From: an uncultured Dehalococcoidia bacterium | GTDB lineage: Bacteria; Chloroflexota; Dehalococcoidia; DSTF01; JACRBR01 | Assembly (NCBI GenBank): GCA_964371095.1 | Contig: CAYJMJ010000004.1 | Span: forward strand, 17,651-81,650 | Reading direction: 5' to 3' | Length of the DNA: 64,000 nucleotides | In this document: positions 4,555-48,036 of the stretch, piece by piece | Layout of the letters: each line of letters opens with the position of its first letter | Numbering within the stretch: the first letter of the stretch is position 1 | Program-made: the position numbers and the translations under genes | Notes under the pieces: generated by a model | The model's input: only the letters and a program-made list of their open reading frames with translations | Told to the model about the DNA's origin: nothing | Database searches by the model: none

Positions 4555-4719
4555 CGGCGCGATTGTACCGGGAATGGTGCGATGGCAGCTTCCGATCGTA
4601 GGGAGGGCCGAGCGTCCGGTATGATCCTCGCAGTCATGGAAGACTTCGAGGCCTACGGACAGCTGCGCGACCGGCCGCGCGACACGCCGCCGCCGGGCGC
4701 GCCCGCCGCGGGGCGCGCG

Positions 4720-4750
4720 CCCCCCCCCCCCCCCCCGCGCCCCCCCCCCC
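4720..4750 (+). repeat. homopolymeric tract C17-GCG-C11 (encodes poly-Pro in every frame)
   Basis: Read directly from the sequence: 4720-4736 is 17 C, then GCG, then 4740-4750 is 11 C. An ATG-initiated frame starting at 4621 terminates at TGA 4756-4758; the LCP frame continues in frame 0. Confidence 0.9.
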
Positions 4751-4805
4751 GCCGCTGATCCTCGCGCCGCCGCGCCCCAAGCGCTCGCACTGGCTTCGCA
4801 ACATC

Positions 4806-5783
4806 GTGATGCTCGCGGCCCTCTACGTCGCGTTGGCCGTCGGCACGACGGTGCAGCCGCTGCCGATACCGTTCACGTCGGTCCACGCCTCGGTGCCGTT
4901 CCCGGGCGGCGCACCGGTGTTGTTCGGACTGCCGGACCGCCCGTTCACGGTGCTCGTCATCGGCCTGGACCGCCGCCCGTCCGAAAAGGGAGCGAGCCGT
5001 ACGGACACCGTGCTGCTCGTGCGCATCGACCCGGGCGCGCACAAGGCTGCGTTCCTCAGCATCCCGCGTGACTCGCTCATGGAGGTCCCGCAGGCCGGCG
5101 GCACCTACACGCAGGACCGCATCAACACCGCCTATGTCTACAACTGGTCATCGAAGGACGGCAGTGCGGCGCCGAAGGCCGTGGCGGCCACGATCGAGCA
5201 CAACCTGGGCATCAAGGTCGACCATTACATCACGTTCGATCAGCGCAGCGCCGAGGACTTGATCCAGGCCATGGGCGGCGTCACGATCGACAACCCGCGC
5301 GAATTCGGCCAGGAGGACTACTCCGACGACGACGTCCACGTCGTGCCGCAGCACTTCGCGAAGGGCAAGATCTCACTCGACGGCTACCAGGCCGTCGCCT
5401 ACGGCCGCATACGCGAAGGCTCCACCGATTTCGATCGCATCCAGCGGCAGCAGCGAGTCGGTTCGGCGCTCATTCATCAGGCATCGTCGCCGATGTCCGT
5501 CGTTCACCTGCCTGCGGCGTTCAACGCGTACCGGAAGACCATCAAGACCGACATGAGCCTGCGCCAGTCGGCGGGCGTGCTGTCGCTGCTCAAGGGCGTC
5601 GACGACGGCGACCTCAAGACGAAGTCGCTCGGCGACGCGGCGGTGTCGTGCAACTCCTGCACGGCGTCGATCCAGCTCCTCGACCCGGCCAGGGTGCAGG
5701 CGATCATCGCCGAAGCATTCGGCGACCCGGAGGCCGGCGCCCGCGCCGCGCAGCTTCTCGCCGCCGCGGGCGTCACGCCGTAA
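4806..5783 (+). CDS. LytR-CpsA-Psr (LCP) family cell-envelope phosphotransferase; N-terminus probably encoded from 4621 in another frame
   Basis: Transmembrane helix MLAALYVALAVG followed by an LCP domain (TVLVIGLDRRPSEKGASRTDTVLLVRIDP...FLSIPRDS...DRINTAY). The frame is open back to 4602 with no ATG. The 4621 ATG frame (MILAVMEDFEAYGQLRDRPRD...PPPP) would join it after a -1/+2 shift inside the poly-C tract. Confidence 0.8.
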   Translation: MMLAALYVALAVGTTVQPLPIPFTSVHASVPFPGGAPVLFGLPDRPFTVLVIGLDRRPSEKGASRTDTVLLVRIDPGAHKAAFLSIPRDSLMEVPQAGGTYTQDRINTAYVYNWSSKDGSAAPKAVAATIEHNLGIKVDHYITFDQRSAEDLIQAMGGVTIDNPREFGQEDYSDDDVHVVPQHFAKGKISLDGYQAVAYGRIREGSTDFDRIQRQQRVGSALIHQASSPMSVVHLPAAFNAYRKTIKTDMSLRQSAGVLSLLKGVDDGDLKTKSLGDAAVSCNSCTASIQLLDPARVQAIIAEAFGDPEAGARAAQLLAAAGVTP

Positions 5784-5793
5784 GGAGGACGAA

Positions 5794-6210
5794 TTGACCG
5801 AAGAAATCACCGCCGACTTCCTGATCCTCGCCGATGCGGCGCAGGTCCAGGGCGAGAAGCTCTATTTGCTGGGCGGCGGATGGTCGCTCATCTGGGCCAA
5901 GGAGTTTCCCGCGCAGCACCAGATGGCCGTCGCCGCCGGCATCCTCATCCCGTGGATGGAGACGAATGCCCGCCACCAGTTCCGCATCCACGTCCACTCC
6001 GAGGACGGCGCGACGTTCGGCGACGTCAGCGGCGAGTTCGAGCAGGGCCGCGCGCCCGGCCTCCCGCCGGGAACCACGCAGCGCGTCATGCTCACCGTCA
6101 ACATGGGTATCCGCATCGAGCGGCCAACAGAAGCCGCCGCCGAACTGTGGCTCGACGGCGTGCTCGCGCGCTCCGTGCCCTTCCGGATCGCCGCGACGCC
6201 TCCGCGCTAA
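5794..6210 (+). CDS. conserved hypothetical protein (138 aa), co-oriented 10 nt downstream of the LCP gene
   Basis: Clean ORF with non-biased composition (MTEEITADFLILADAAQVQGEKLYLLGGGWSLIW...). No family recognised. Confidence 0.55.
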   Translation: MTEEITADFLILADAAQVQGEKLYLLGGGWSLIWAKEFPAQHQMAVAAGILIPWMETNARHQFRIHVHSEDGATFGDVSGEFEQGRAPGLPPGTTQRVMLTVNMGIRIERPTEAAAELWLDGVLARSVPFRIAATPPR

Positions 6211-6935
6211 CCGCGCGCCTTTCGTGACTGCCCGATGAATGCGTCGAACAGCCGCCGCATGAGCGGCGCGAACTCCGGTTTGTGCCCTTCGGGCCGCTCG
6301 GGGTGCCACTGGACGCTCACCACCCAGCGATGCTGCTCGCTCTCGGCGCCTTCGACCAGGTCGGACCCGTGATCGTCGGCGAACGCGATCGGCCGCAACC
6401 CGGCGGCCAACTCCGACGCCCCGACGGCCTGGTGGTGGCGCGAATTGACCTCGAATGCGGTCTCGCTGAACGCCGCCGCCAGCCGCGTGTCGCCGATGAG
6501 CCGCACGCGGTGCCACCGCGATGGGTACCCCGGCGTGCCGAAGTCAGCGCGATGCTCTCCGCTGTCGATGTGCTGGAGGAGTCCGCCACCGAATCCGACG
6601 TTCATGAGCTGGTGACCCCGGCAGATCGCCAGCACCGGGATATCGAGCCGCAGCGCTTGCTCCAGGTACGCAAGCTCCATCGCATCGCGCTCGGGCGACG
6701 TCTCCTTGACCTTCGGGTGGCGCTCGGCGGCGTAGCTCGACGGGTCGACGTCGATGCCGCCGGTCAGCATCAGCGCGTCGAGCGATGGCGCCAGGTCGGC
6801 GGCCCGGCCCACGGCCGCCTCGTTGAGGTCGATGACCTCGCCCCCGGCCTCCCGCACGCGCGACCAGTACCGGTCGAGCGCCTCGGCCGCCACGTCCTCC
6901 CAGCGCGTTACGCCGATGCGCGGCGCATCACTCAT
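6207..6935 (-). CDS. class I glutamine amidotransferase, gamma-glutamyl-GABA hydrolase-like (peptidase C26)
   Basis: Catalytic Cys in LAICRGHQLMNV and a His/Glu region (WHPE). 242 aa. Confidence 0.8.
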   Translation of the reverse strand: MSDAPRIGVTRWEDVAAEALDRYWSRVREAGGEVIDLNEAAVGRAADLAPSLDALMLTGGIDVDPSSYAAERHPKVKETSPERDAMELAYLEQALRLDIPVLAICRGHQLMNVGFGGGLLQHIDSGEHRADFGTPGYPSRWHRVRLIGDTRLAAAFSETAFEVNSRHHQAVGASELAAGLRPIAFADDHGSDLVEGAESEQHRWVVSVQWHPERPEGHKPEFAPLMRRLFDAFIGQSRKARG

Positions 6936-7088: not shown

Positions 7089-7922
7089 TTACTCCTCGAA
7101 CTCCGGGTCGTCGGCGTCTTCGTCGCGCGCGACGTCGAACAGCGTGACCTCTCGAGGTTCGGCTTCGTGCTCGGCCTCGTGTTCCGTTTCCTCCCACTCC
7201 TCGTTCTCTTCGGCGAACTCGTCTTCCTCGTCGAGGTCGGCCCGCACGAGGCTCTCCTTGGTGTACGGCCGCACCACCTCGCCAGCCTTGCCCGCCGGGA
7301 ACGACAGCCGGCCCACCTGGCCCGGGTGCTGGAACGTCTCCTTGATGATCACCCGCACGCTGTCGCCGCTCAGGCCGGCGACCGCCGCGGCGTACTTATT
7401 GCCGCCGGCGATCAGCCTCGTCAGCCGCAGCGCCAGCTTCGGCTCGATGTCGCTGATGTAGTCGCCCGCCATCGTCTCGACCGTCAGGCGCGAGCCGATG
7501 GTCTTCAGCGCCACCTCGTCGCCGGCCGACAGCGTCGCGAGCATCTTGATGTTCGCGGGCTTGAGCACGGTCACGCCCGTCTTGCCCATCTCCTCGATGA
7601 ACAGGCTGGTGTCCACCTGCTGCGCCCTGTCCGGCTCCGCCTTGGCGCGCGCCGTCGCGAGCCGCTCGAGGTTCTTGCGGGCAATCGAATTGGTCGGCTC
7701 GAGTTCCAGCGCCTGGTGGTACGCCTCTCGAGCTTCCTTGATCTTGCCCGTCTCGCTCAACGCCTTGCCGAGCCGGTTGTAGGCCTCGGGCTCCGTGGGA
7801 AACACGGCGATGATCGCGCGGTTGGCCGTGATCGCGTCGTCCCAGCGGCTCTGCATCGCGAACTGGATCGCCTGCTCGGTCCGAACGCGCTTGATGCGCG
7901 CTTTGTCTTCGGTCTGGTTCAT
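7089..7922 (-). CDS. TPR-repeat protein with acidic C-terminal tail
   Basis: TPR-like helices (AYNRLGKALSETGKIKEAREAYHQALELEP) and a C-terminal Glu/Asp-rich tail. Start chosen at MNQTEDK (7920-7922), preceded by AGAGGA; the ORF is open up to 8006. Confidence 0.7.
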   Translation of the reverse strand: MNQTEDKARIKRVRTEQAIQFAMQSRWDDAITANRAIIAVFPTEPEAYNRLGKALSETGKIKEAREAYHQALELEPTNSIARKNLERLATARAKAEPDRAQQVDTSLFIEEMGKTGVTVLKPANIKMLATLSAGDEVALKTIGSRLTVETMAGDYISDIEPKLALRLTRLIAGGNKYAAAVAGLSGDSVRVIIKETFQHPGQVGRLSFPAGKAGEVVRPYTKESLVRADLDEEDEFAEENEEWEETEHEAEHEAEPREVTLFDVARDEDADDPEFEE

Positions 7923-8117
7923 ACGTCCTCTTGAATGCGTTCGGGGGCTCGAATGTCGGGAGATTGTAGGCTGTTGCCCGAAGCAACACAAGTCAGTTTT
8001 TCCCACGGTAGCATCGGCCGAATACCCTCATGTTCGATTGCCACATGCACGTAACATTAGGGCCGGCCCCGTGCGATGGTTCTCGCACCTGGCGCCCGCA
8101 CTCCGTATATTCTCTGC

Positions 8118-10345: not shown

Positions 10346-11212
10346 ATGGTTCGTCCACTCCGCCGCCGCGCACGCCGGTGGCTCGTCGTTGCCATCGCCG
10401 TGATCGGCGCGATGGTGGCTGCGTGCGGAAGCGGCTCGAGTTCGGACGAGAAGCGCGGGGCGTCGCCCGCGGCCGGCGCGTCCGAGACCGGCGGGCTGTC
10501 CGGCTCGATCACCGTGTCCGCCGCCTCCTCCCTGACGGACGTGTTCTACCGCGAAGCGGCGGCGTTCCAGAAGGCGCATCCCGATACGCGAGTGAACTTC
10601 AACTTCGGCGGCAGTCCGACGCTCGTGACCCAGCTCGACCAGGGCGCCCCGGCCGACGTGCTCGCCACCGCGGACGAGAAGAACATGAAGTCCGCGTCCG
10701 ACAAGTCGCTCGTGGGCGCCGTCAACGTCTTCGCCAGGAACCGGCTCGTCATCGCCGTCCCGACGTCGAATCCCGGCGGGATCCAGGCGCCGAAGGACCT
10801 CGCCAAGCCCGGTCTCAAGCTCGTGCTCGCGGAGGAAGGCGTGCCCGTCGGCGATTACGCGCGCCAGGCGCTCTCGAAGATGGAGTCCGACGGCTCGTTC
10901 GGGGCCGGGTTCACCGGCGCCGTGCTGAAGAACGTCGTCTCCGAAGAGTCGAACGTCAAGGCGGTCGTCGCCAAAGTGCAGCGCGGCGAGGCCGATGCCG
11001 GCATCGTCTACAAGACCGATATCACGCCCGCCGTCGCGAAGGACGTGACCACAATCGACATTGCCGACGGGTTCAACGTCATCGCCTCCTACCCGATCGC
11101 CATCACGTCGATGGCCGGGTCCCCGGGCGTCGCCGCGGCGTTCATCGAGTTCATCATGTCCGCCGAGGGCCAGAAGATTCTCACCGATAACGGGTTCAGC
11201 GGGGTGAAATGA
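10346..11212 (+). CDS. modA: molybdate ABC transporter substrate-binding lipoprotein
   Basis: Lipobox (VAACGSG) and a ModA-family fold with the SAASSL anion-binding motif. Stop overlaps the next start as ATGA. Confidence 0.9.
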   Translation: MVRPLRRRARRWLVVAIAVIGAMVAACGSGSSSDEKRGASPAAGASETGGLSGSITVSAASSLTDVFYREAAAFQKAHPDTRVNFNFGGSPTLVTQLDQGAPADVLATADEKNMKSASDKSLVGAVNVFARNRLVIAVPTSNPGGIQAPKDLAKPGLKLVLAEEGVPVGDYARQALSKMESDGSFGAGFTGAVLKNVVSEESNVKAVVAKVQRGEADAGIVYKTDITPAVAKDVTTIDIADGFNVIASYPIAITSMAGSPGVAAAFIEFIMSAEGQKILTDNGFSGVK

Positions 11213-12084
11213 GCGGCGCCGTCCACGCATCGCACCGCACCGCCGGCGGCGTCCGGGCGGGCCTCGGTTGGCTCTTCAGCCCGCCGGCATTGCTCTTCGC
11301 GGCGTTTCTCGCGGTGCCCCTCGCGGCGTGCGGCGGCTCGCCCACGCCCGACGCGACCGCGATCCCGGGTCAGCGGCCATCGGGTAACATCACCGTCCTC
11401 GCCGCTGCCGACCTGCGCCTCGCGTTCGACAAGATCGGGGCCGCGTTCGAGAAGACCTGCGACTGCCGCTTGACGGTGACCTACGGCTCGTCCGGGACGT
11501 TCGCGACGCAAATCAAGCAGGGCTCACCTGGCGACGTCTTTGCGTCCGCGGACGTGTCATATGTCGATGGGTTGGAACAGGACGGGCTCATCCTTCCTGA
11601 CACAAAGCGGGACTACGCTATCGGACGCATCGTCCTGGCAGCGAGCGCCGGCTCACGATTGACCATCGACGGGTTGGCTGACCTCGCCGGCCCCCAGTTC
11701 AAGAAAGTCTCCATTGCAAACCCTGATCACGCTCCATACGGCCGTGCGGCGAAGGAAGCCCTGACCGCACTGGGTCTGTGGGACAAGATCGAGCCGAAGC
11801 TCGTGCTCGGCGAGAACGCCGCGCAGGCCACCCAGTACGTCGAGACAGGCGACGCCGACGGTGGCATCATCCCGCTTTCGCTTTCCATTCAGAACAAGGA
11901 CAAGATCCGGTACGTACTGATCGACGACAGACTCCACAGTCCCCTGAGGCAGGCGGCCGCCGTCCTCAAGCAGAGCAAGCACGCCGACGTGGCAAGAGCG
12001 TTCCTTGACTACCTCAACGGGCCGGAGGGGCGGCCCATCATGCGCGAGTACGGGTTCGTTCTTCCCGGGGAACAGGCGCCATGA
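11209..12084 (+). CDS. second ModA-family substrate-binding lipoprotein (divergent paralogue, possibly tungstate/other oxyanion)
   Basis: Lipobox (LAACGGS) and a ModA-like fold, but the anion-binding motif reads LAAADL instead of SAASSL. ATGA overlaps on both sides. Confidence 0.85.
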   Translation: MSGAVHASHRTAGGVRAGLGWLFSPPALLFAAFLAVPLAACGGSPTPDATAIPGQRPSGNITVLAAADLRLAFDKIGAAFEKTCDCRLTVTYGSSGTFATQIKQGSPGDVFASADVSYVDGLEQDGLILPDTKRDYAIGRIVLAASAGSRLTIDGLADLAGPQFKKVSIANPDHAPYGRAAKEALTALGLWDKIEPKLVLGENAAQATQYVETGDADGGIIPLSLSIQNKDKIRYVLIDDRLHSPLRQAAAVLKQSKHADVARAFLDYLNGPEGRPIMREYGFVLPGEQAP

Positions 12085-13998: not shown

Positions 13999-14052
13999 AT
14001 TGGCATATCGCGCGCACTGCCGAGCATCTGTCCTTCGTTCCGAGCGAGTGAC
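13999..14052 (-). repeat. diverged copy of the dispersed intergenic repeat family (see 31066, 32705, 46283)
   Basis: The reverse complement, GTCACTCGCTCGGAACGAAGGACAGATGCTCGGCAG, aligns with GTCATCCTGAGCGAAGCGAAGGATCT...CGGGCAG at 31066. Confidence 0.4.
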
Positions 14053-28937: not shown

Positions 28938-30773
28938 ATGACCTCATCCTTTCACTTCTCGCCGCGTCCGAACCGCGCCGCCGAGATCCGCTGGACCGAG
29001 TGGGGCACCGGCGCGTTCGAGCGAGCGCGGCGGGAGGACAAGCCGGTGCTGCTCGGCATCTCCGCCGTCTGGTGTCACTGGTGCCACGTCATGGACGAGA
29101 CGTCGTACTCCGACGGCGAGGTCATACGTCTGATCAACGAGCGGTTCGTGCCGATCCGCGTCGACAACGACCAGCGCCCCGACATCAACGCCCGCTACAA
29201 CATGGGTGGCTGGCCGACCACCGCGTTCCTGACGCCCGACGGCGAAGTGATGGCCGGCATGACGTACGTGCCACCGGACCAGATGCGCGACGTGCTCGCC
29301 CAGGTCAGCACGTACTTCCGTGACAACCGCGCCGACATCGACGCCAAGATCGCCGATATCGTCGCGCGCCGCGACGCCGAACGCAGCGCTTCCACGGCAT
29401 CCGGCGCCGAACTGTCGGACCAGATCCTCCGCGACGCGCTTCACGCCGCGAACGACGCCTACGACCCCGTCTTCGGCGGGTTCGGCGGCGAGCCGAAGTT
29501 CCCCCACACCGAGGCGATCGACCTGCTGCTGCACGTCCACCTGCGCGACGGCGACCGTGACGCCCTCCACATGGCGCGCAAGACGCTCGCGCACATGTAC
29601 GGGGGCGGCACCTACGACCAGGAGTGGGGCGGTTTCTATCGATACTCCACGAAACGCGACTGGAGCGTGCCCCACTACGAGAAGATGATCGAGGACAACG
29701 CGCTGCTCCTCCGCAACCTGCTCAAGCTGTACCGCATCACGCGGGATCCGCAGCACCGGCACTACATCGATGCCACGATCGCCTACACGGACACGTGGCT
29801 GTCCGATGCCGCGTCCGGGGCGTTCTACGGGTCCCAAGACGCCGACGAGGAGTTCTACCCCCTGCCTGCGGCGGAGCGCGCGCGCCGCACGGCGCCGTAC
29901 GTCGACCAGACGATCTACACGAGCTGGAACGCCATGGCGATCAGCGCCTACCTCGAAGCGTCGTGGACGTTGGACCGCCGCGATCTCGAGGAACGCGCGC
30001 TTCGCGCGCTCGACTTCCTCTGGAACCGGCTGCAGACCGGCGGCGCCATGTACCGCTACTTGACACCGGACGGGCCGCGCATCGCCGGCCTGCTCGAGGA
30101 CCAGGCGTGGGCGGCCGCCGCCTGCCTCGATGCGTACGAGGCCGCCGGACGGCCGCCGGACCTCGAACGCGCGCAGACGCTTGTCCGCTTCATGCGCGAC
30201 CGGCTGGCCGCCCCGGGTGGCGCCTTCTACGACACGCCGGCGGAGCACGAGACGCTCGGGCGGCTCGCCCTCCGTCAGACGCCGGTGAAAGAGAATGCCG
30301 TCGCGGCAGGGGTCATGGTGCGGCTCTCGCGCATGACGCACGATGCCGATCTCGAGGCAGCGGCTCGCCGCGCGTTGCTGCCGTTCGCCGGAATCGTCGA
30401 ATCGCAGGGCCACTTCGCCGCCGGGTACGCGACGGCGGTCGACGTGCTGCTGGATCCCGGCGCCGACGTGCGGATCGTCGCTCCGCCGGGCGACCGCGTC
30501 GGGCCGATGCGCGCGGCCGCGCTCGCACTCGCCGTCCCGAGCCGCACCGTGCGCGTCATCGACGATTCGGATGGCGACGCGTTGGAGCGCGCTGGGCTGC
30601 CCGCCCGGCCGTCGCCCGCGGCATACGTCTGCTACGGTACGCTCTGCTCGGAGCCCGTCACAGCGCCCGCCGATCTGGCCGAGGCCGTCCGGCGGACGCG
30701 CGAGGCCTACGAGCGGACGCGTCACATCGAACCGCTCGCCGGACCCCGCACGGGTCGTATGGCGAGCGACTGA
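28938..30773 (+). CDS. thioredoxin-domain protein, DUF255/YyaL family (Trx fold plus six-hairpin glycosidase-like domain)
   Basis: WCHWCHVMDETSYSD CxxC thioredoxin-like N-terminus and the DUF255 signature (YDQEWGGFYRYSTKRDWSVPHYEKMIEDNALL). Confidence 0.85.
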   Translation: MTSSFHFSPRPNRAAEIRWTEWGTGAFERARREDKPVLLGISAVWCHWCHVMDETSYSDGEVIRLINERFVPIRVDNDQRPDINARYNMGGWPTTAFLTPDGEVMAGMTYVPPDQMRDVLAQVSTYFRDNRADIDAKIADIVARRDAERSASTASGAELSDQILRDALHAANDAYDPVFGGFGGEPKFPHTEAIDLLLHVHLRDGDRDALHMARKTLAHMYGGGTYDQEWGGFYRYSTKRDWSVPHYEKMIEDNALLLRNLLKLYRITRDPQHRHYIDATIAYTDTWLSDAASGAFYGSQDADEEFYPLPAAERARRTAPYVDQTIYTSWNAMAISAYLEASWTLDRRDLEERALRALDFLWNRLQTGGAMYRYLTPDGPRIAGLLEDQAWAAAACLDAYEAAGRPPDLERAQTLVRFMRDRLAAPGGAFYDTPAEHETLGRLALRQTPVKENAVAAGVMVRLSRMTHDADLEAAARRALLPFAGIVESQGHFAAGYATAVDVLLDPGADVRIVAPPGDRVGPMRAAALALAVPSRTVRVIDDSDGDALERAGLPARPSPAAYVCYGTLCSEPVTAPADLAEAVRRTREAYERTRHIEPLAGPRTGRMASD

Positions 30774-30792
30774 CGGCGCGAGGAGGCGAACC

Positions 30793-31050
30793 ATGACATC
30801 AGAACAAGAACGGACGGCCGCCAGGCCGATTGAGGCCGCACGACCGAGACGCCGCATCATGCCGGTGCTGGGCGGCATCGCCGCGGCGGCTCTCGGCCTG
30901 TTCCTGTTGCAGAACCTGCAGGAGGTGGACGTGCACTTCCTCTGGTTCAGCTTCAGCACGCGTCTCACGTGGGCGCTGCTCGCCTCCACCGCCTTCGGCG
31001 TCATCTCGCTCGCCGCCTTCTCGATCTTCCGCCGCCGCGACGAGCGTTGA
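30793..31050 (+). CDS. small membrane protein (LapA/DUF1049-like), 85 aa
   Basis: AGGAGG Shine-Dalgarno 6 nt upstream of the ATG and two transmembrane helices. It lies in an alternative frame of a longer spurious ORF. Confidence 0.6.
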   Translation: MTSEQERTAARPIEAARPRRRIMPVLGGIAAAALGLFLLQNLQEVDVHFLWFSFSTRLTWALLASTAFGVISLAAFSIFRRRDER

Positions 31051-31065
31051 CCAAGCGACCGCGCA

Positions 31066-31090
31066 GTCATCCTGAGCGAAGCGAAGGATC
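31066..31090 (+). repeat. dispersed intergenic repeat, copy A (GTCATCCTGAGCGAAGCGAAGGATC)
   Basis: Read directly from the sequence; matches 21 of 25 positions with the copy at 31187-31211. Confidence 0.7.
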
Positions 31091-31186
31091 TACGCCCGTC
31101 GGGCAGTGCCGCACCACGCCACGCGACGCGCGCCAATTCACCGTCGTTCCCATTCGTGATGACCGTTGACCGACGCTTCGCCGATC

Positions 31187-31211
31187 GTCATCCTGACCGG
31201 AGCGAACGATC
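31187..31211 (+). repeat. dispersed intergenic repeat, copy B (GTCATCCTGACCGGAGCGAACGATC)
   Basis: Direct repeat of copy A, 121 bp downstream, in the same intergenic region. Confidence 0.7.
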
Positions 31212-31276
31212 GACACCGATTGGCGAGCCCTGCGCCGCGACCGCGCCGGGCGCACCGCCAGCGAGAGGAGCAATAC

Positions 31277-31810
31277 GTGACACTGCTCGAATTCATCCAG
31301 TCCGAGCTCACCCGCCTGCACGCGATGCTGGATCGTGGCGTCGCCGACCTCACGCCGGAGCAGTGGCACGCCGTGCCGGCGGGCAACCCCAGGACCAACA
31401 CCATCGCCTTCGAGATGTGGCACTACGCCCGCACCGAGGACAACATCGTCCGCTTCATCCTCCAGGGTCGGCGCCCGACGGTGTGGATGGAGGGCGGCTG
31501 GGCGGAGCGCCTCGGCCTGCCCCCCGTGGCGCAGGGCACCGGCATGTCGCCGGAGGACGCCCAGGCGATGCGCATCCCCGATCTCGACGCGTTCAAGCAG
31601 TACGTGCAGGCCGTCTGGGCCAGCACCCGCGACTACCTGGCGAACCCCGATACGTCCGTCTTCGATCAGCCAGTGACCGTGAAGCCGCTTGGTGAGATGC
31701 CGGCGATTCGCGCCCTCGGTCAGGTCTGCATGACGCACGGCTTCACGCACCTCGGCGAACTCGAGATCTGCCGAACGCTGCTCGGCCTCAAGCCGGCGAT
31801 CGGCGTGTGA
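31277..31810 (+). CDS. DinB/YfiT-like family protein
   Basis: DinB_2-like four-helix bundle (EFIQSELTRLHAMLDRGVADLTPEQWHAV...FEMWHYARTEDN). GTG start with GAGAGGAG 8 nt upstream; the ORF is open back to 31166. Confidence 0.7.
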   Translation: MTLLEFIQSELTRLHAMLDRGVADLTPEQWHAVPAGNPRTNTIAFEMWHYARTEDNIVRFILQGRRPTVWMEGGWAERLGLPPVAQGTGMSPEDAQAMRIPDLDAFKQYVQAVWASTRDYLANPDTSVFDQPVTVKPLGEMPAIRALGQVCMTHGFTHLGELEICRTLLGLKPAIGV

Positions 31811-31859
31811 TATCGGACGGCGCCTCCGTTTAACGCGCCGTTAACCGCCGTACGCTATC

Positions 31860-32660
31860 GTGCCACCGGTTACCGGCCAGGAGGCACCCGTGTCCGAGCA
31901 TTCCGGCATTGAAGACGAGCAAACCGCGAACGAACAGGCGCTCCGCGAGGCCGACGAGCAGTCGGCACGCCAACGCATCCCCGGCCCGTTCGATATTGCC
32001 TTCCTCTCCAACACCGAGAACGTCACCGAGTTGCTGCTCGTGCGCCACGGGCAGCAGGAGTACGACGTCAACGGCCCCGTCTCCGAGTTGCTCGACCCGC
32101 CGCTGAGCGCGCTCGGTCGCGAGCAGGCGCGCCTCGTCGGCGCCGCCCTGTCGACCGAGCGCATCGACGCTGTCTACGCGAGCCCGCTCCAGCGCGCGCT
32201 CGACACCGGCCGCGAGATCGCGCGCCATCACCGACTTGAGCCGATCGTGATCGACGACCTGCAGGAGATCGGCATCTTCCGCGACGTTCCGCCCGACCGC
32301 ACGCCGCTCGAGTTCATCGGACCGCGGCTGCTCGCCGGCGTCCGCCAGCGCATGGTCGCGGAGAAGTGCTGGGACGTCTACCCGTACACCGAGCCGAGCC
32401 ATGACTTCAACAAGCGCGTCATCAACGCCATCGAGGGCATCATGGTGACGCACGCCGGCGAGCGCGTCGTTGTGGCGTGCCACGGCGGCGTCATCAACGC
32501 CTACGTCGGCCACCTGATCGGCTCGCGGTACGACATGTTCTTCCGGCCCGCCCACACGTCGATCAACATCGTCGCCGGCGGCGACGGCCGGCGCGCGCTC
32601 TACCGCCTGAACGACATCCACCACCTGCTGACGCCCGAGGGCAGCCTGCACAGCGTCTAA
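31860..32660 (+). CDS. histidine phosphatase family protein (phosphoglycerate mutase-like)
   Basis: LLVRHGQ (RHG motif), conserved Arg/His residues, and the ACHGGVINAY motif. Confidence 0.8.
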   Translation: MPPVTGQEAPVSEHSGIEDEQTANEQALREADEQSARQRIPGPFDIAFLSNTENVTELLLVRHGQQEYDVNGPVSELLDPPLSALGREQARLVGAALSTERIDAVYASPLQRALDTGREIARHHRLEPIVIDDLQEIGIFRDVPPDRTPLEFIGPRLLAGVRQRMVAEKCWDVYPYTEPSHDFNKRVINAIEGIMVTHAGERVVVACHGGVINAYVGHLIGSRYDMFFRPAHTSINIVAGGDGRRALYRLNDIHHLLTPEGSLHSV

Positions 32661-32704
32661 CGCCGCCCGGCACGCCCGGCCGCCGCGCCACACCCAACCA
32701 CCCT

Positions 32705-32756
32705 CGTCATGTTGAGCGCGATACGCCGTCATGCTGAACGCAGCGAAGCATCTTCC
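32705..32756 (+). repeat. dispersed intergenic repeat, tandem copies C and D (GTCATGTTGAGCGCGATACGCC + GTCATGCTGAACGCAGCGAAGCATCTTCC)
   Basis: Same family as 31066 and 46306; shares the GCGAAGCATCTTCCCC tail with the 46306 copy. Confidence 0.65.
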
Positions 32757-32827
32757 CCGGCCGACGCCATCCGCTTCGTTTCGAGCTGACGGCGCCGCCA
32801 CGGTCTCATCGGCTATCATGCACCACC

Positions 32828-33709
32828 ATGACGCGGATCGCGGATCTCAACGGCAAGACGTGCGTCGTCACCGGCGCGAACAGCGGCATCGGCAAGGTCA
32901 CCGCCGCCGCGCTCGCATCGATGGGCGCGCACGTCGTGATGGTCTGCCGCGATCCCGCCCGCGGCGAGGCCGCTCGCGCCGAGATCGCGAAGCGCTCCGC
33001 CAACGAGCGCATCGATCTCTTGATCGCCGATATGGCCTCGCAGCGGCAGATCCGGCAGCTCGCCGCCGGCATCCGCACGCGGTATGACCGGCTCGACGTG
33101 CTCGTCAACAACGCCGGCGCGATGAACACCGCACGCACCCTCACCGAGGACGGCATCGAGACGACGTGGGCGGTCAATCACCTGGCGTACTTCCTGCTGA
33201 CCAACGAGCTGCTCGATGTGCTCAAGGCCAGCGGCCCCTCGCGCGTCGTCAGCGTCAGTTCGCGCGCGCACGTCGGCGCGCGCATCGACTTCGACGACGT
33301 GCAGGGCGAGCGGAAGTTCGCTGGCTATCGCATCTACGGCCAGTCGAAGCTCGCGAACGTCCTCTTCACGTACGAGCTGGCCCGTCGCCTCGAAGGCAGC
33401 CCGGTCACGGCGAACTGCCTGCACCCCGGCGTCGTCGCCACCGGTTTCGGCCACAACAACACCGATCTCTTCGGCCGGGCGTTCGGCACCGTGATGAGCG
33501 GGATTCGCCCGTTCCTGATGAGCCCCGAGCGCGGCGCGGAAACGTCGATTCACCTCGCGGCGTCGCCGGAGATCGAGGGTGTGTCCGGAAAGTACTTCTC
33601 GAGCAAGAAGCCCGTCCGCTCATCGCCGGAGACGTATGACGAGACGACCGCGCGCCGCCTCTGGCAGCTCAGCGAGGAGATGACGCAAATCCGCGTCGCG
33701 GCGGGCTGA
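32828..33709 (+). CDS. SDR-family oxidoreductase
   Basis: TGANSGIGK cofactor-binding motif, NNAG, and the YxxxK catalytic motif (YGQSK). Confidence 0.9.
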   Translation: MTRIADLNGKTCVVTGANSGIGKVTAAALASMGAHVVMVCRDPARGEAARAEIAKRSANERIDLLIADMASQRQIRQLAAGIRTRYDRLDVLVNNAGAMNTARTLTEDGIETTWAVNHLAYFLLTNELLDVLKASGPSRVVSVSSRAHVGARIDFDDVQGERKFAGYRIYGQSKLANVLFTYELARRLEGSPVTANCLHPGVVATGFGHNNTDLFGRAFGTVMSGIRPFLMSPERGAETSIHLAASPEIEGVSGKYFSSKKPVRSSPETYDETTARRLWQLSEEMTQIRVAAG

Positions 33710-45225: not shown

Positions 45226-46194
45226 ATGTCTCTCATCACCGCCGCCCGCGATCGATTCTTCCGGTTCGACATTGCCAGCCGCGCCGCGGTGCTCTCGTTC
45301 TCCTCGAACGCGCTGCTGATGTTGTTGAAGGTGGCCATCGGCCTGGCGTTCGGCTCTATCGCCGTGCTCGGCGATGGCGTCGACAGCGCGGAGGACGTGG
45401 TCGCCTCAGGCATCGCATTCTTCACCGTGCGGCTCGCTCTCCAGCCCGCCGACGAGGAGCACCCCTACGGTCACGGCAAGGCCGAGAGCCTCGCGGCGAT
45501 GTCACAGTCCGCCCTCATCGCCGGTGGCGCGGTGTTCGTCACGATCGCCGCCGTGCGCCGCATCATCACGCACGATGTCGCCGTCCACGTCGGCCCTTCG
45601 CTGATCGTCATGGCGTTCGCCGTCGCCGTTAACCTCGGCGTCTACGCGTATTCGATGCGCGCGGCGCGCATCAGCGGCTCCGTCGCCATCGCCGCCGACG
45701 CCAGGCACCTGCTGACCAACGTCGTGCAGGCCGGCGCGGTGATCCTGGGCCTCGCCCTCGTCGCCTTCACGAACAACCGCATCTTCGACCCGATTGTCGC
45801 GATCGTGCTCGCCGCGTATCTCCTGTGGATCGCCCTCGGCATCTTCCGCTCAGCGCTCGAGGAGTTGGTCGACACCGCGCTGCCGCCCGAGACCATCGCG
45901 CAGCTCGACGACTGCCTGGCGCACGAGAGCCACGGCATGCGCAGCTACCACGCGCTTCGCACGCGCAAGTCGGGCCGCGAGATCCACATCGACCTTCACG
46001 CGATCGTCGACCCCACGATCACCGTCAGCGAGGCGCACCGGCTCGTCGAGGATCTCGAACGGGACATCGGCGTGATCATCCCGGGCGCCATCGTCACGGT
46101 CCACCTGGATCCCGATGAGCCCGACATCATGGAGCGATGCGGTCCCAACACCACTTCCGCCGCGACGCTCGGCATTCACGTCCACCGCCACTGA
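45226..46194 (+). CDS. cation diffusion facilitator family transporter
   Basis: Six transmembrane helices, HxxxD-type metal sites (GDGVDSAED, HLLTNVVQAG) and a C-terminal cytoplasmic domain. Confidence 0.9.
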   Translation: MSLITAARDRFFRFDIASRAAVLSFSSNALLMLLKVAIGLAFGSIAVLGDGVDSAEDVVASGIAFFTVRLALQPADEEHPYGHGKAESLAAMSQSALIAGGAVFVTIAAVRRIITHDVAVHVGPSLIVMAFAVAVNLGVYAYSMRAARISGSVAIAADARHLLTNVVQAGAVILGLALVAFTNNRIFDPIVAIVLAAYLLWIALGIFRSALEELVDTALPPETIAQLDDCLAHESHGMRSYHALRTRKSGREIHIDLHAIVDPTITVSEAHRLVEDLERDIGVIIPGAIVTVHLDPDEPDIMERCGPNTTSAATLGIHVHRH

Positions 46195-46282
46195 GCGGCG
46201 TCGCGTCCGAACAACCGCAGCCCCGCCACGAAAACGGCGCCCGCGCCGCAGTCAGCGTGCCGAAGCACGGACATGAATTGCT

Positions 46283-46369
46283 CGTTGCTGACGCTCGAGT
46301 CCGATCATGCTGAGCGCGGCGAGGCATCTTCCCCCGCCGGCCAGGACCCTTCGCCCTGCTCAGCGTGAC
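46283..46369 (+). repeat. dispersed intergenic repeat, palindromic copy E (half-copy at 46283-46300 plus TCATGCTGAGCGCGGCGAGGCATCTTCCCCCGCCGGCCAGGACCCTTCGCCCTGCTCAGCGTGAC)
   Basis: Shares TCATGCTGAnCGCnGCGArGCATCTTCCCC with 32728-32756. Its termini GCTGAGCGCGGCGAGG and CCTTCGCCCTGCTCAGC form an imperfect inverted repeat. Confidence 0.65.
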
Positions 46370-46390
46370 CCGGTTCTCGACGTCCTGCTA

Positions 46391-47140
46391 CTACCCCAGC
46401 TCCCCCGCCGCCTGCAGCACGAGCGTCGCCGCCACCAGGCCCGCCGTCTCGGACCGCAGCACGCGTTCGCCCATCGTCACGATCGCCGCGCCGGCCGCCT
46501 CCGCGGCCTCGACCTCCGCCCGCTCGTAGCCACCCTCCGGCCCGATGAAGACGCTCACCTCGCCCAGCGCGAACAGCGCGTCGATCTCCGCCGCGAGCGC
46601 TGTCTGCACGTTCGGAGCCGCCTCTCCGGCTCCTTCGTACGGCACCAGGAGGATGCCCGGGGCACTCGCGAGCGCTGTCTCGAACGTCGCCGGCGCATCA
46701 ACCTCCGGCACGGCCGAGCGGCCGCACTGTTCCGCGGCCTCGATCACGATGCGCCGCCAGCGATCGGCCCGGTTCCCCTCGCCGGCCGTCTTCACGACCG
46801 CCCGCGCCGCGATCAGCGGCACGAAGCGCGAGACGCCGATCTCCGTTCCTTTCTCCAGCAGCCACTCGAAACGGTCGCCCTTCGTGATCGACTGGAAGAG
46901 ATGCACCTTCACGCGCGGCTCCGGCGGCCCCTCGCGCCGCTCGACCACGGCGCCCTCGACCGCGCGCTCGTGTACGCGATCGAGCCGCACCCGCACGTCG
47001 ATGCCACCGCCGTCAAACAGCGCGATCTCGTCGCCCGCGCGCAACCGAAGCACCTTCGTCAGGCGCCGCGCCAGCTCACCCTCGATCGTCACGGCGTCGC
47101 TCGCCAGCAGCGCCGGCTCGACGTGGAATCGCCGCGTCAT
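46391..47140 (-). CDS. rsmE: 16S rRNA (uracil1498-N3)-methyltransferase
   Basis: RsmE family: PUA-like N-terminus and a SPOUT domain (LFQSITKGDRFEWLLEKGTEIGV...IGPEGG). Confidence 0.85.
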   Translation of the reverse strand: MTRRFHVEPALLASDAVTIEGELARRLTKVLRLRAGDEIALFDGGGIDVRVRLDRVHERAVEGAVVERREGPPEPRVKVHLFQSITKGDRFEWLLEKGTEIGVSRFVPLIAARAVVKTAGEGNRADRWRRIVIEAAEQCGRSAVPEVDAPATFETALASAPGILLVPYEGAGEAAPNVQTALAAEIDALFALGEVSVFIGPEGGYERAEVEAAEAAGAAIVTMGERVLRSETAGLVAATLVLQAAGELG

Positions 47141-48036
47141 CGCCCCGCCTCGATGCATCGCCAGTCGCCCATCGCCTTCACCGACGCGATCCGGGCGCCC
47201 TCGGCCCGCAGCGCATCCGTCACACCGCGCTCCCGTTCGCCGATCACGCCCGAGACGACGAGCCGCCCGCAGGGCGCCAGCGCCGCCACAAGCTCAGCCG
47301 CATGTTCGATGATCACCCGCGCGATGATGTTTGCCACGACCACGTCGAACGCCGCTGCGGGCACGTCAAACGGCCACGCCGCGCCCATGCTGCCCTCCGC
47401 CGCCCGCACGACGTCTTCGACGCCATTCGCGCGCGCGTTCTCCTCCGTTACGCGCACGCAATTCGCATCGATGTCCACGGCGAGCACCTCGCGCGCACCG
47501 AGCTTCGCCGCGGCGATCCCGAGGATGCCGGAGCCGCAGCCGACGTCCAGTACGCGCACGCCTGGCCGTACCGCCCGTTCGAGCGCCTCGAGGCACATGC
47601 GCGTCGTTTCGTGCTGTCCCGTGCCGAACGCCATCCCCGGATCGAGCGTCAGCACGACGTCGCCCGCCCGCGGCTCGTAGACCCGCCATGACGGCACGAC
47701 GACGATCCCCTCGCCGAACCGCTCGACGTGAAAGTGCTCCTTCCACGACTCCGCCCAGTCCTCTTCCGCGACCTCGCGGGCGGATAGCCGCGCCTCGATG
47801 CCTCCCGCGGCGAACGCGGCGCGCGCCGCGTCCAGGACCTCCGGCGCGCCACCTCCATCGTGATATGAGCGAACGATGGCGTCTCCCCGGCGGTCGACTA
47901 TCGCGTCCGATTCGAGGTCCGGCTGCGTGAACGGCAACTCGATCGACACGTCGCGGCCCGTCAGGCCGCGGAGGATGTCCGCGGCGGTCTCTGTGGCGTC
48001 GGCTGCGACGGCGGCGGTGATCTCGATGTATTGCAC
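47137..48036 (-). CDS. prmA: ribosomal protein L11 methyltransferase
   Basis: PrmA signature (DPGMAFGTGQHETTRMCLE...VLDVGCGSGILGIAAAKLGA). Confidence 0.85.
   Translation of the reverse strand: MQYIEITAAVAADATETAADILRGLTGRDVSIELPFTQPDLESDAIVDRRGDAIVRSYHDGGGAPEVLDAARAAFAAGGIEARLSAREVAEEDWAESWKEHFHVERFGEGIVVVPSWRVYEPRAGDVVLTLDPGMAFGTGQHETTRMCLEALERAVRPGVRVLDVGCGSGILGIAAAKLGAREVLAVDIDANCVRVTEENARANGVEDVVRAAEGSMGAAWPFDVPAAAFDVVVANIIARVIIEHAAELVAALAPCGRLVVSGVIGERERGVTDALRAEGARIASVKAMGDWRCIEAGR

Follow-up and report, generated by a model that had tools for sequence, protein, structure and literature searches.

Intergenic hairpin repeats in a Dehalococcoidia genome are probably a GAG/CGA variant of the tagged, Ssn-related repeat class

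Short hairpin repeats recur between the genes of a 64,000-nucleotide stretch of contig CAYJMJ010000004.1 from an uncultured Dehalococcoidia bacterium (the whole stretch is called the window below). We consider it likely that these repeats are a GAG/CGA variant of the CGTC/TGTC-tagged, Ssn-related hairpin repeats, and that they are targets of an Ssn nuclease encoded elsewhere in the genome. The variant is previously uncatalogued, because the search pattern published for Ssn-related motifs (SRM) matches none of its 259 copies; these 259 matches, and all counts that rest on them, are those among the matches listed from viral contigs and species-representative genomes. The copies share a hairpin whose stem covaries, they are spread across phyla, and they have been gained and lost in the lineage of the window. 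Outside this genome, we observed that the motif class is linked to Ssn-like genes, which are homologous to a Neisseria gonorrhoeae gene flanked by the motif called NTS. For the present genome we infer the link to Ssn, since the window contains no Ssn gene. A preliminary description of the window had recognized the repeats as an intergenic family. It missed that the family is not genome-specific, being a near-invariant 25-mer found across many phyla, and that its frame is shared with CGTC-tagged repeats (PMC3733652) and Ssn-related motifs (PMC11893778).

The repeat unit is a covarying hairpin

The unit has the form GTC-AT-NNN-GA-GC-GNA-GC-GA-NNN-AT-C (written as single-stranded DNA (ssDNA) oligonucleotides: GTCATTCTGAGCGAAGCGAAGAATC and TGTCATTCTGAGCGAAGCGAAGAATCTC). 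Its stem starts with five outer Watson-Crick pairs that open with A-T and T-A, continues with a G.A and an A.G opposition, and ends in two pairs, G11-C17 and C12-G16, that close a 3-nt loop. The sequence would allow tandem sheared G.A pairs at G9/A19 and A10/G18. More generally, the unit can be written as GTCAT-N3-GAG-X-CGA-N3-ATC, where X stands for C-GNA-G, for a longer hairpin of self-complementary sequence or for a further GAG..CGA unit nested inside. Counts for the C-GNA-G type of X were 243 for CGAAG, 15 for CGCAG and 14 for CGGAG.

To collect copies, public sequences were scanned with a pattern (GTCATNNNGAGCGAAGCGANNNATC) that fixed the loop and left the inner three stem positions free. 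The stem triplets proved fully complementary in 243 of the 259 exact-loop matches, with at least ten different stems; TCT/AGA, CCT/AGG, TCC/GGA, CCC/GGG, GTT/AAC, GCT/AGC, TTC/GAA, ACT/AGT and GGT/ACC are all in use. Across 247 non-redundant occurrences, 715 of 741 stem cells hold Watson-Crick combinations. Wobbles were compared for strand asymmetry (G.T in 6 and A.C in 3 of the 741 cells), but their numbers are too small to decide which strand is functional. The base ahead of GTC in the public occurrences is T in 204 cases, C in 29, G in 9 and A in 5.

Covariation was measured on 31 distinct sequences. Paired cells amounted to 91.7%, against 82.6% in shuffles, and the covariation score was 0.328, against 0.139; none of 500 shuffles reached the observed values, and registers slid along the alignment were at most 50.7% paired. 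T2, C3, A4 and C25 are invariant in this set and G1 is nearly so, while pair 4-24 is A-U and pair 5-23 is U-A in 30 of the 31 sequences each. Compensatory changes are also found within the window, where three of the copies (A, C2 and D1, located below) differ by ATCCT/AGGAT versus ATGCT/AGCAT stems.

The hairpin flanks genes for small GIY-YIG nucleases

Two sets of loci were used, a motif-first set fetched only for containing the motif and a protein-first set chosen only by protein; L-numbers are our labels of loci fetched from public contigs. In the motif-first set, copies lie within 100 nt of three genes for single-domain GIY-YIG proteins (Pfam PF01541). In L113 the gene occupies 6260-6598, with copies at 6147 and 6636; in L091 it occupies 10847-11218, with a doublet at 10731/10819 on one side and a copy at 11228 on the other; and in L114 it occupies 7675-7998, with a copy at 7621. 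A profile of the three proteins found at least 7,997 relatives, and all four protein-first loci that were looked up are flanked by the motif on both sides (L300, labelled Acidiferrales; L302, labelled Verrucomicrobiae; L304 and L305). The copies in this set lie about 55-80 nt before the start codon and at or just past the stop codon.

Copies of the GAG/CGA type also flank annotated GIY-YIG genes of Spirosoma oryzicola (protein WP_232563592.1) and of a Planktothrix agardhii plasmid (protein WP_083616022.1); the flanks of the Planktothrix gene are arrays of two half copies and one full copy with a 23-nt period. Together, the arrangement of motif, GIY-YIG gene and motif was seen in L113, L091, L114, L300, L302, L304, L305, L312 and L313. 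Every small single-domain GIY-YIG gene found adjoining the motif is flanked by it, in seven metagenomic loci as well as in Spirosoma and Planktothrix. Around the genes of Azospirillum, Aeromonas and N. gonorrhoeae the copies are of the classical CGC/GCG type. One motif-flanked protein, P0287, is 53% identical over 87 amino acids (E 1e-30) to the NTS-flanked N. gonorrhoeae open reading frame (ORF) of about 94 amino acids. The Ssn-like label of the motif-flanked proteins rests on Pfam PF01541 and on this 53% identity.

A protein-first scan of viral contigs with the GIY-YIG alignment returned a single contig that was already known, and no solved relative of the motif-flanked GIY-YIG protein was found in the PDB. 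An all-versus-all BLASTP of 1,648 ORFs from motif loci gave no conserved neighbour protein; only phage structural genes clustered, and only in the viral set. The Planktothrix gene (L312; plasmid p1, NZ_LR882964.1, 18147-19816) lies between a MmeI-type restriction-modification gene and the DISARM gene drmA, and is situated inside a defence island.

The unit shares its frame with two described repeat classes

The superfamily of CGTC-tagged repetitive extragenic palindromic (REP) sequences was defined by Di Nocera et al. in 2013 and includes Neisseria dRS3 and Rickettsia RPE-4 and RPE-6 (PMC3733652). Its members carry a CGTC tag, 'changed to TGTC or CCTC', complementary AT at the first and second stem positions and a 3-nt tail; they lie downstream of ORFs, predominantly as inverted dimers, and have no linked transposase (PMC3733652). 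The present repeats have in common with them an unpaired CGTC- or TGTC-type 5' tag, AT at stem positions one and two, a short 3' tail starting with C, a predominance of inverted dimers and no linked transposase. They likewise lie downstream of ORFs, between unidirectional or convergent genes, and the contexts in the window agree with this. The two differ in the tail, which is TCN here and CCA there, and in the stem. Published members have fully paired stems of 8-9 bp and loops of 4-5 nt, and repeats with more than one stem mismatch were discarded (PMC3733652), whereas the present unit has a different stem and loop. Because its two G.A mismatches exceed the one-mismatch limit, the unit would have been excluded from that census, which lists five phyla that do not include Chloroflexota or Acidobacteriota (PMC3733652).

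The second class comprises the targets of Ssn nucleases. The NTS, CGTCATTCCCGCGMAVGCGGGAATCYRG, is the longer Neisseria form studied by Chenal et al. in 2025 (PMC11893778). SsnA, a single-domain GIY-YIG nuclease of 94 aa (cd10448), binds it in single-stranded form and cleaves a few nucleotides upstream of it; cleavage depends critically on the three bases ahead of the palindrome, and binding on the C past it (PMC11893778). Motifs are found near 71% of ssnA homologues and on both sides of 42%, and SsnA lowers transformation by DNA that bears the NTS (PMC11893778). The 2025 description presents these enzymes as the first site-specific endonucleases with ssDNA as their only substrate, and their targets were defined mainly from Pseudomonadota (PMC11893778).

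The present unit shares with the NTS and SRM an unpaired (C/T)GTC, a hairpin that opens and closes with AT and is followed by C, a pyrimidine-rich 5' arm and a purine-rich 3' arm. It is an inverted-repeat hairpin within the 20-50 nt of that class, and its conserved unpaired 5' GTC and 3' C give it an orientation. Like those motifs, the copies are numerous, mostly intergenic and often arranged as inverted pairs, and the bracketing of a GIY-YIG gene of about 100 aa by two motifs is reproduced for the present variant in nine genomes or contigs other than that of the window. The differences concern the inner stem, which is GAG/CGA with tandem G.A/A.G here and CGC/GCG there; the cap, which is C-GNA-G or a variable hairpin here and a 4-nt loop there; and the frequent arrays of 5' half copies. 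The hosts here are mainly Acidobacteriota, Chloroflexota, Bacteroidota, Cyanobacteriota, Verrucomicrobiota and others, in contrast to the emphasis on Pseudomonadota in the published work.

In the literature, the literal sequence and five stem variants, searched on both strands, occurred in no paper that we found, and a search for the GCGAAGC hairpin as an intergenic repeat gave nothing relevant. Rfam gave no match at the gathering threshold over the whole window, and near the copies there were only unrelated sub-threshold matches (E <= 10). A hammerhead-like reading (GUC followed by CUGA...GAA, noticed by eye) was rejected as the CUGANGA core is absent and Rfam finds nothing. Integron attC sites were rejected for want of RYYYAAC/GTTRRRY boxes.

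The same 25-mer occurs across phyla

The motif was found in 96 stretches of viral contigs and in at least 120 stretches of the species-representative genome collection. The same 25-mer is present in metagenome-assembled genomes (MAGs) labelled as about 18 phyla, in addition to the viral contigs. By title, the genome matches listed belong to Acidobacteriota (37), Chloroflexota (17), Bacteroidota with Ignavibacteria (13), Bacillota (9), Planctomycetota (6), Gemmatimonadota (5), the Candidate phyla radiation (5), Nitrospirota (4) and Verrucomicrobiota (4). Several classes of Pseudomonadota and allies are also represented, and Nitrospinota, Omnitrophota, Armatimonadota, Abditibacteriota, Latescibacterota and Deferribacterota have a single match each. 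Some of these phylum labels may be wrong, because most matches come from MAGs and the labels from titles. Closed chromosomes and isolates secure at least six phyla, namely Nitrospirota, Latescibacterota, Chloroflexota, Acidobacteriota, Bacteroidota and Cyanobacteriota.

One to three 5' half copies precede about 12% of the public copies, at a distance of 19-23 nt. This arrangement is the same as that of C1 and C2 in the window, and half copies followed by a full one are also seen beside Ssn-like genes. In a Bacteroidaceae MAG (L108; JAZNUE010000016.1, 3430-4230), seven to eight tandem copies of a 105-nt unit were observed, each made up of the last ~30 nt of the upstream gene, a spacer and the motif GTCATGTTGAGCGAAGCGAAACATC. 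The array reflects local tandem amplification, in which the hairpin is copied together with the rest of the unit.

A proposed mode of action

If the repeats are Ssn targets, the unit would act as a directional hairpin that forms when the DNA becomes single-stranded. The folded hairpin would be bound by a single-domain GIY-YIG ssDNA endonuclease of about 100 aa of the Ssn family, which would nick the single-stranded DNA a few nucleotides to the 5' side of the GTC tag. Such a nick might mark the flanking genes for ssDNA processing, for instance in incoming transforming DNA or in DNA exposed at replication or repair. Between close relatives, copies arise, degrade and are lost, and no target-site duplications accompany them; they sit at gene 3' ends, where they would do little harm and may add a 3' hairpin to the transcript. 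We infer that this genome would encode the nuclease, that the nuclease would cut this variant and that the cut would have a role in the cell.

Several points weigh against this explanation. With jackhmmer, neither the 64-kb window nor about 115 kb of sequence from close relatives yielded an Ssn-like gene. The search pattern published for SRM, HGTCWYN(0-2)YYVSBRHN(0-5)WNVSBRGN(0-2)RNCYNB (PMC11893778), matched 0 of the 259 copies and nothing in the window, while it found seven NTS in an N. gonorrhoeae control locus. Judged from sequence, membership in the class rests on the shared frame and the gene linkage rather than on the published SRM definition, and cleavage of the variant by Ssn is a prediction. 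In four of the five window copies the loop deviates from the consensus, and these copies could be relics in the course of decay. The singleton copies show a 31:15 sense bias past co-directional genes (from crude gene calls), which would fit a role at the RNA level too. Finally, the phylum labels are partly doubtful, as L167 and L188 are labelled Saccharimonadales but have flanks of acidobacterial style.

A less likely, though serious, extension is that the GAG/CGA hairpin is a distinct and near-universal Ssn target class, overlooked by current motif definitions, that forms, together with the nuclease gene, a self-propagating ssDNA element, the GIY-YIG counterpart of REPIN-RAYT, moving between phyla and via phages. 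Copies would then spread without target duplications, and the arrays of 5' half copies could be footprints of cutting and repair just upstream of GTC. Horizontal movement of such an element would account for the occurrence of one 25-mer in groups as different as Chloroflexota, Bacteroidota, Cyanobacteriota and candidate phyla.

Should the hairpin indeed be an Ssn target in Chloroflexota, Acidobacteriota, Bacteroidota, Cyanobacteriota and others, the published motif census would undercount the system, and the conserved, very compact recognition element (tandem G.A plus a GNA triloop) would provide ssDNA tools with a new pair of enzyme and target. A specific candidate enzyme would make it testable how REPs of the CGTC type can spread in the absence of a transposase, and spurious small ORFs over the repeat, such as reverse-frame ORFs ending in 'DPSLRSG' (31067-31750 in the window), would be explained. 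For the window itself the significance is modest, namely that of non-coding hairpins at gene 3' ends that were recently gained or lost.

Copies in the window and their turnover among close relatives

The window was searched with the consensus of the preliminary description, GTCATSCTGAGCGNRGCGARGSATC, allowing up to three mismatches. Five full 25-nt copies were found, compared with none in 100 dinucleotide-preserving shuffles. An nhmmer profile built from the five recovered these same copies, at E values of 7e-9 to 5e-6, and gave no other match with E below 1. The family of at least six copies that had been proposed is thus real, although it consists of five full copies and one half copy. Its copies far outnumber those that chance would give, and they do not represent pieces of an insertion sequence (IS) end. 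All are intergenic, as had been stated, according to gene calls on near-identical contigs and analysis of the reading frame by GC content at third codon positions. The tag is CGTC in B, C1 and C2, AGTC in A, GGTC in D2 and CGATC in D1; all five full copies end in C, and four start with GTC whereas D1 starts with ATC.

Copies A and B lie where they had been placed. Copy A (31066..31090, + strand) is a perfect consensus, GTCATCCTGAGCGAAGCGAAGGATC, with 0 mismatches; it starts 16 nt past the stop codon of an 85-aa gene with which it is co-oriented, and folds as a local hairpin with a 5-bp stem and a GC/GC cap. A doubtful, degenerate inverted half copy at 31139..31163 (- strand; reverse complement GTCATCACGAATGGG...) would be its partner. 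The fold of 31063-31170 pairs GUCAUC with GAUGAC, yet it is no better than that of shuffles (z = -0.08). Copy B (31187..31211, +; GTCATCCTGACCGGAGCGAACGATC) is full but degenerate, with two mismatches, and was found by both pattern and profile; its CGTC tag begins at 31186 and its end lies 66 nt ahead of the start of DinB_2.

Copy C sits between His_Phos_1 and an SDR gene. Instead of the two tandem copies that had been reported at 32705-32756, there is a 5' half copy, C1 (32706..32720, +; GTCATGTTGAGCGCG), that starts 22 nt upstream of the start of a full copy, C2 (32728..32752, +; GTCATGCTGAACGCAGCGAAGCATC). C2 has one mismatch, was found by both pattern and profile, and has the stem ATGCT/AGCAT, a compensatory change relative to copy A. 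A degenerate inverted partner arm of C2, read from the sequence (32769..32790, -; reverse complement GTCAGCTCGAAACGAAGCGGAT), closes an element of ~86 nt that spans 32706-32790. The fold of 32700-32795 pairs both arms (-33.5 kcal/mol, z = -1.25).

Doublet D lies in the spacer between the convergent CDF and rsmE genes. It consists of two full inverted copies with 16 nt between them, D1 as the left arm (46304..46328, +; ATCATGCTGAGCGCGGCGAGGCATC, one mismatch) and D2 as the right arm (46345..46369, -; GTCACGCTGAGCAGGGCGAAGGGTC, three mismatches). The long hairpin that had been predicted for 46283-46369 was borne out (-41 kcal/mol, z = -4.1, none of 200 shuffles as good), while its reading as a half copy plus a full copy was wrong.

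Comparison with relatives revealed gain and loss. Homologues with names, at 70-74% identity, belong to Chloroflexota or Dehalococcoidia. Strain-level contigs (99.4-99.8% identity) all retain the copies of the window. At 85-88% amino acid (aa) identity, doublet D is absent from L292, L294 and L295, where synteny is kept and the CDF/rsmE spacer measures 29, 52 and 53 nt, respectively, versus 196 nt in the window. The spacer between His_Phos and SDR is without copy C in L296 (93% aa) and in L223 (73% aa), the sole relative of the SDR gene from Joint Genome Institute (JGI) metagenomes with enough upstream sequence to be used. The orthologue of copy B consists of two half copies plus GTCATTCTGAGCGAAGCGAAGGACC in L296 (8880-8908) and reads GTCATCCTGAGCGCAGCGAAAGATC in L297 (1771-1802); both lie at the same position, ahead of conserved promoter-proximal sequence, and copy B is absent from L298 (79% aa). 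Copy A is absent from L297 and represented by a half copy at the equivalent position in L296. No copy of the motif was found in 82 kb from the four relatives L292-L295. The copies thus differ between relatives, which means that they are gained, rearranged and lost on a short time-scale.

In L293 (contig_6763 of ERZ25039478, 11033-13416; 81% aa identity), the CDF/rsmE spacer holds inserted SDR and CAP12/PCTIR TIR-domain genes. This spacer appears to be a recurrent insertion site.

These data bear on the improbable alternative that the copies are orphan relics, that is, members of the Ssn-related class whose nuclease was lost from, or never present in, this lineage, and which now decay neutrally without function. 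The deviations of B, C2, D1 and D2 from the consensus loop, the stem mismatch in B and the badly degraded partner arms at 31139-31163 and 32769-32790 all fit such decay, as do the copy-free DNA of L292-L295 and the lack of an Ssn-like gene in the sampled DNA. However, copy A is a perfect consensus and C2 and D1 keep their stems via compensatory changes. Moreover, the absence of C and D from relatives at 85-93% aa identity implies recent gain or loss, which counts against mere relics.

Spurious long ORFs traverse the copies at 31067-31750 (-), 28944-31136 (-) and 46307-47680 (+) of the window, and begin or end in peptides encoded by the repeat (...DPSLRSG, ...SLRMT..., MLSAARHLPPP...). The same peptide tails are likely to be found in gene predictions wherever the repeat occurs.

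Position relative to genes

The gene context of 63 public singletons was determined from crude ORF calls (>M> 31, <M< 15, >M< 13, <M> 4). Singletons lie mostly past the 3' ends of genes and are rare in divergent promoter regions (4 of 63). In E. coli, REPs have been shown to act as 3' mRNA hairpins. By analogy, the copies might act mainly as RNA, as hairpins in 3' untranslated regions that protect the upstream mRNA from 3'-5' exonucleases or dampen read-through, and a nuclease linkage would then have no bearing on their role here; we regard this possibility as slightly more doubtful than decay. All copies in the window lie just past the 3' end of a gene and in the orientation of that gene, copy A beginning 16 nt past a stop codon, and the public singletons are similarly depleted in divergent promoter regions. 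Tagged REPs are placed downstream likewise (PMC3733652). Against such a role, no U-tract follows any copy and no terminator-like site was scored in 30950-32900 or 46100-46500, for which reasons the copies were rejected as intrinsic terminators; no sigma-70-like promoter was scored at the copies in these two regions either. The orientation bias is modest, stems from crude ORF calls and leaves a third of the singletons antisense. A function in RNA would also leave unexplained the conserved unpaired GTC and C and the flanking of GIY-YIG genes, and Neisseria SsnA does not bind RNA (PMC11893778). An effect at the RNA level could nevertheless coexist, as a side effect, with a role of the repeats as Ssn targets.

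Inverted doublets and the question of a transposase

Around the 259 copies, 140 matches to an inverted half-motif were found within 120 nt downstream. We collected 109 distinct inverted doublets; the 95 non-redundant ones are 51-117 nt long (median 80 nt). The arms of a doublet often differ apically, yet a local hairpin is preserved in each of them. T at -1 and A at +1 flank 84% of the doublets, and no target-site duplication of 2-9 nt exceeds chance among the 95 non-redundant public doublets. In contigs of acidobacterial type (L041, L145, L167, L177, L188, L030 and L163), the doublet is nested in a longer palindrome, CAGGCTGCGGAAAAA ... TTTTTCCGCAGCCTG. The same palindromic flank in L167 and L188 suggests that these two were mis-binned.

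The REP and REPIN elements of Pseudomonas and Enterobacteria have a GTAG tag and a Y1 HUH transposase, RAYT, as partner, and are lineage-specific and vertically inherited. The present repeats resemble them in being tagged imperfect hairpins, in forming inverted doublets that fold into one long hairpin without target-site duplication, and in bracketing a single-copy nuclease gene; they differ in their GIY-YIG partner, in their GTC(A) tag and in the occurrence of the same 25-mer across phyla. It is very unlikely that they are REP/REPIN elements mobilised by a RAYT, an IS200/IS605-type Y1 (HUH) transposase. The ~80-nt inverted doublets, the tagged hairpins, the lack of target-site duplications and the intergenic placement in high copy number would suit this origin, and in L185 one IS200-like TnpA gene lies 600 nt from a doublet. 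But the tag is (C/T)GTC and not GTAG, the TnpA of L185 has different end hairpins of its own, no Y1 transposase family recurs near the copies, the motif flanks GIY-YIG genes rather than Y1 genes, and a 25-mer shared across phyla is unlike the lineage-specific REPIN families. No transposase is linked to the CGTC-tagged repeats either (PMC3733652). A RAYT/IS200 search gave one unrelated IS200-like gene and one weak match far from the motif. In L185 (Acidobacteriota MAG CAWCYZ010000004.1), the IS200-like TnpA gene at 4560-5054 has the end hairpins CCCCCGGCTTTGCCGGGGG and CCTCCGGCTTTGCCGGAGG; it is also located 224 nt from another copy of the motif, and the co-location in the spacer is probably coincidental.

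The preliminary description had classed the family as REP/MITE-type. The REP part holds, given tagged intergenic hairpins, inverted doublets and a presence that varies between close relatives, while the part concerning miniature inverted-repeat transposable elements (MITEs) was not upheld, there being no target-site duplication in 95 doublets and no associated transposase. We give hardly any credence to the idea that a DDE transposase moves the doublets in trans as MITEs, with the single copies being solo terminal inverted repeats: the 25-nt terminal inverted repeats and the size of 51-117 nt would agree with it, but there is no direct target-site duplication (k = 2-9) and no linked transposase, stems covary within a single arm, and each arm keeps a local hairpin even where the arms differ apically. 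A BLASTN search of plasmids with the consensus doublet gave no match, possibly owing to filtering of the palindrome.

A sequence that resembles the motif on the reverse strand

A further, reverse-strand copy had been proposed at 13999-14052. The sequence at this site (-; GTCACTCGCTCGGAACGAAGGACAG) begins 2 nt past the stop codon of the CoA-ligase gene and agrees with the motif in about 16 of 25 positions if one gap is allowed. The profile did not detect it, it is unable to form the stem, and each of 200 shuffles folds better (z = +2.4); this copy was therefore discarded. The sequence may be a decayed relic at best, or a chance resemblance.

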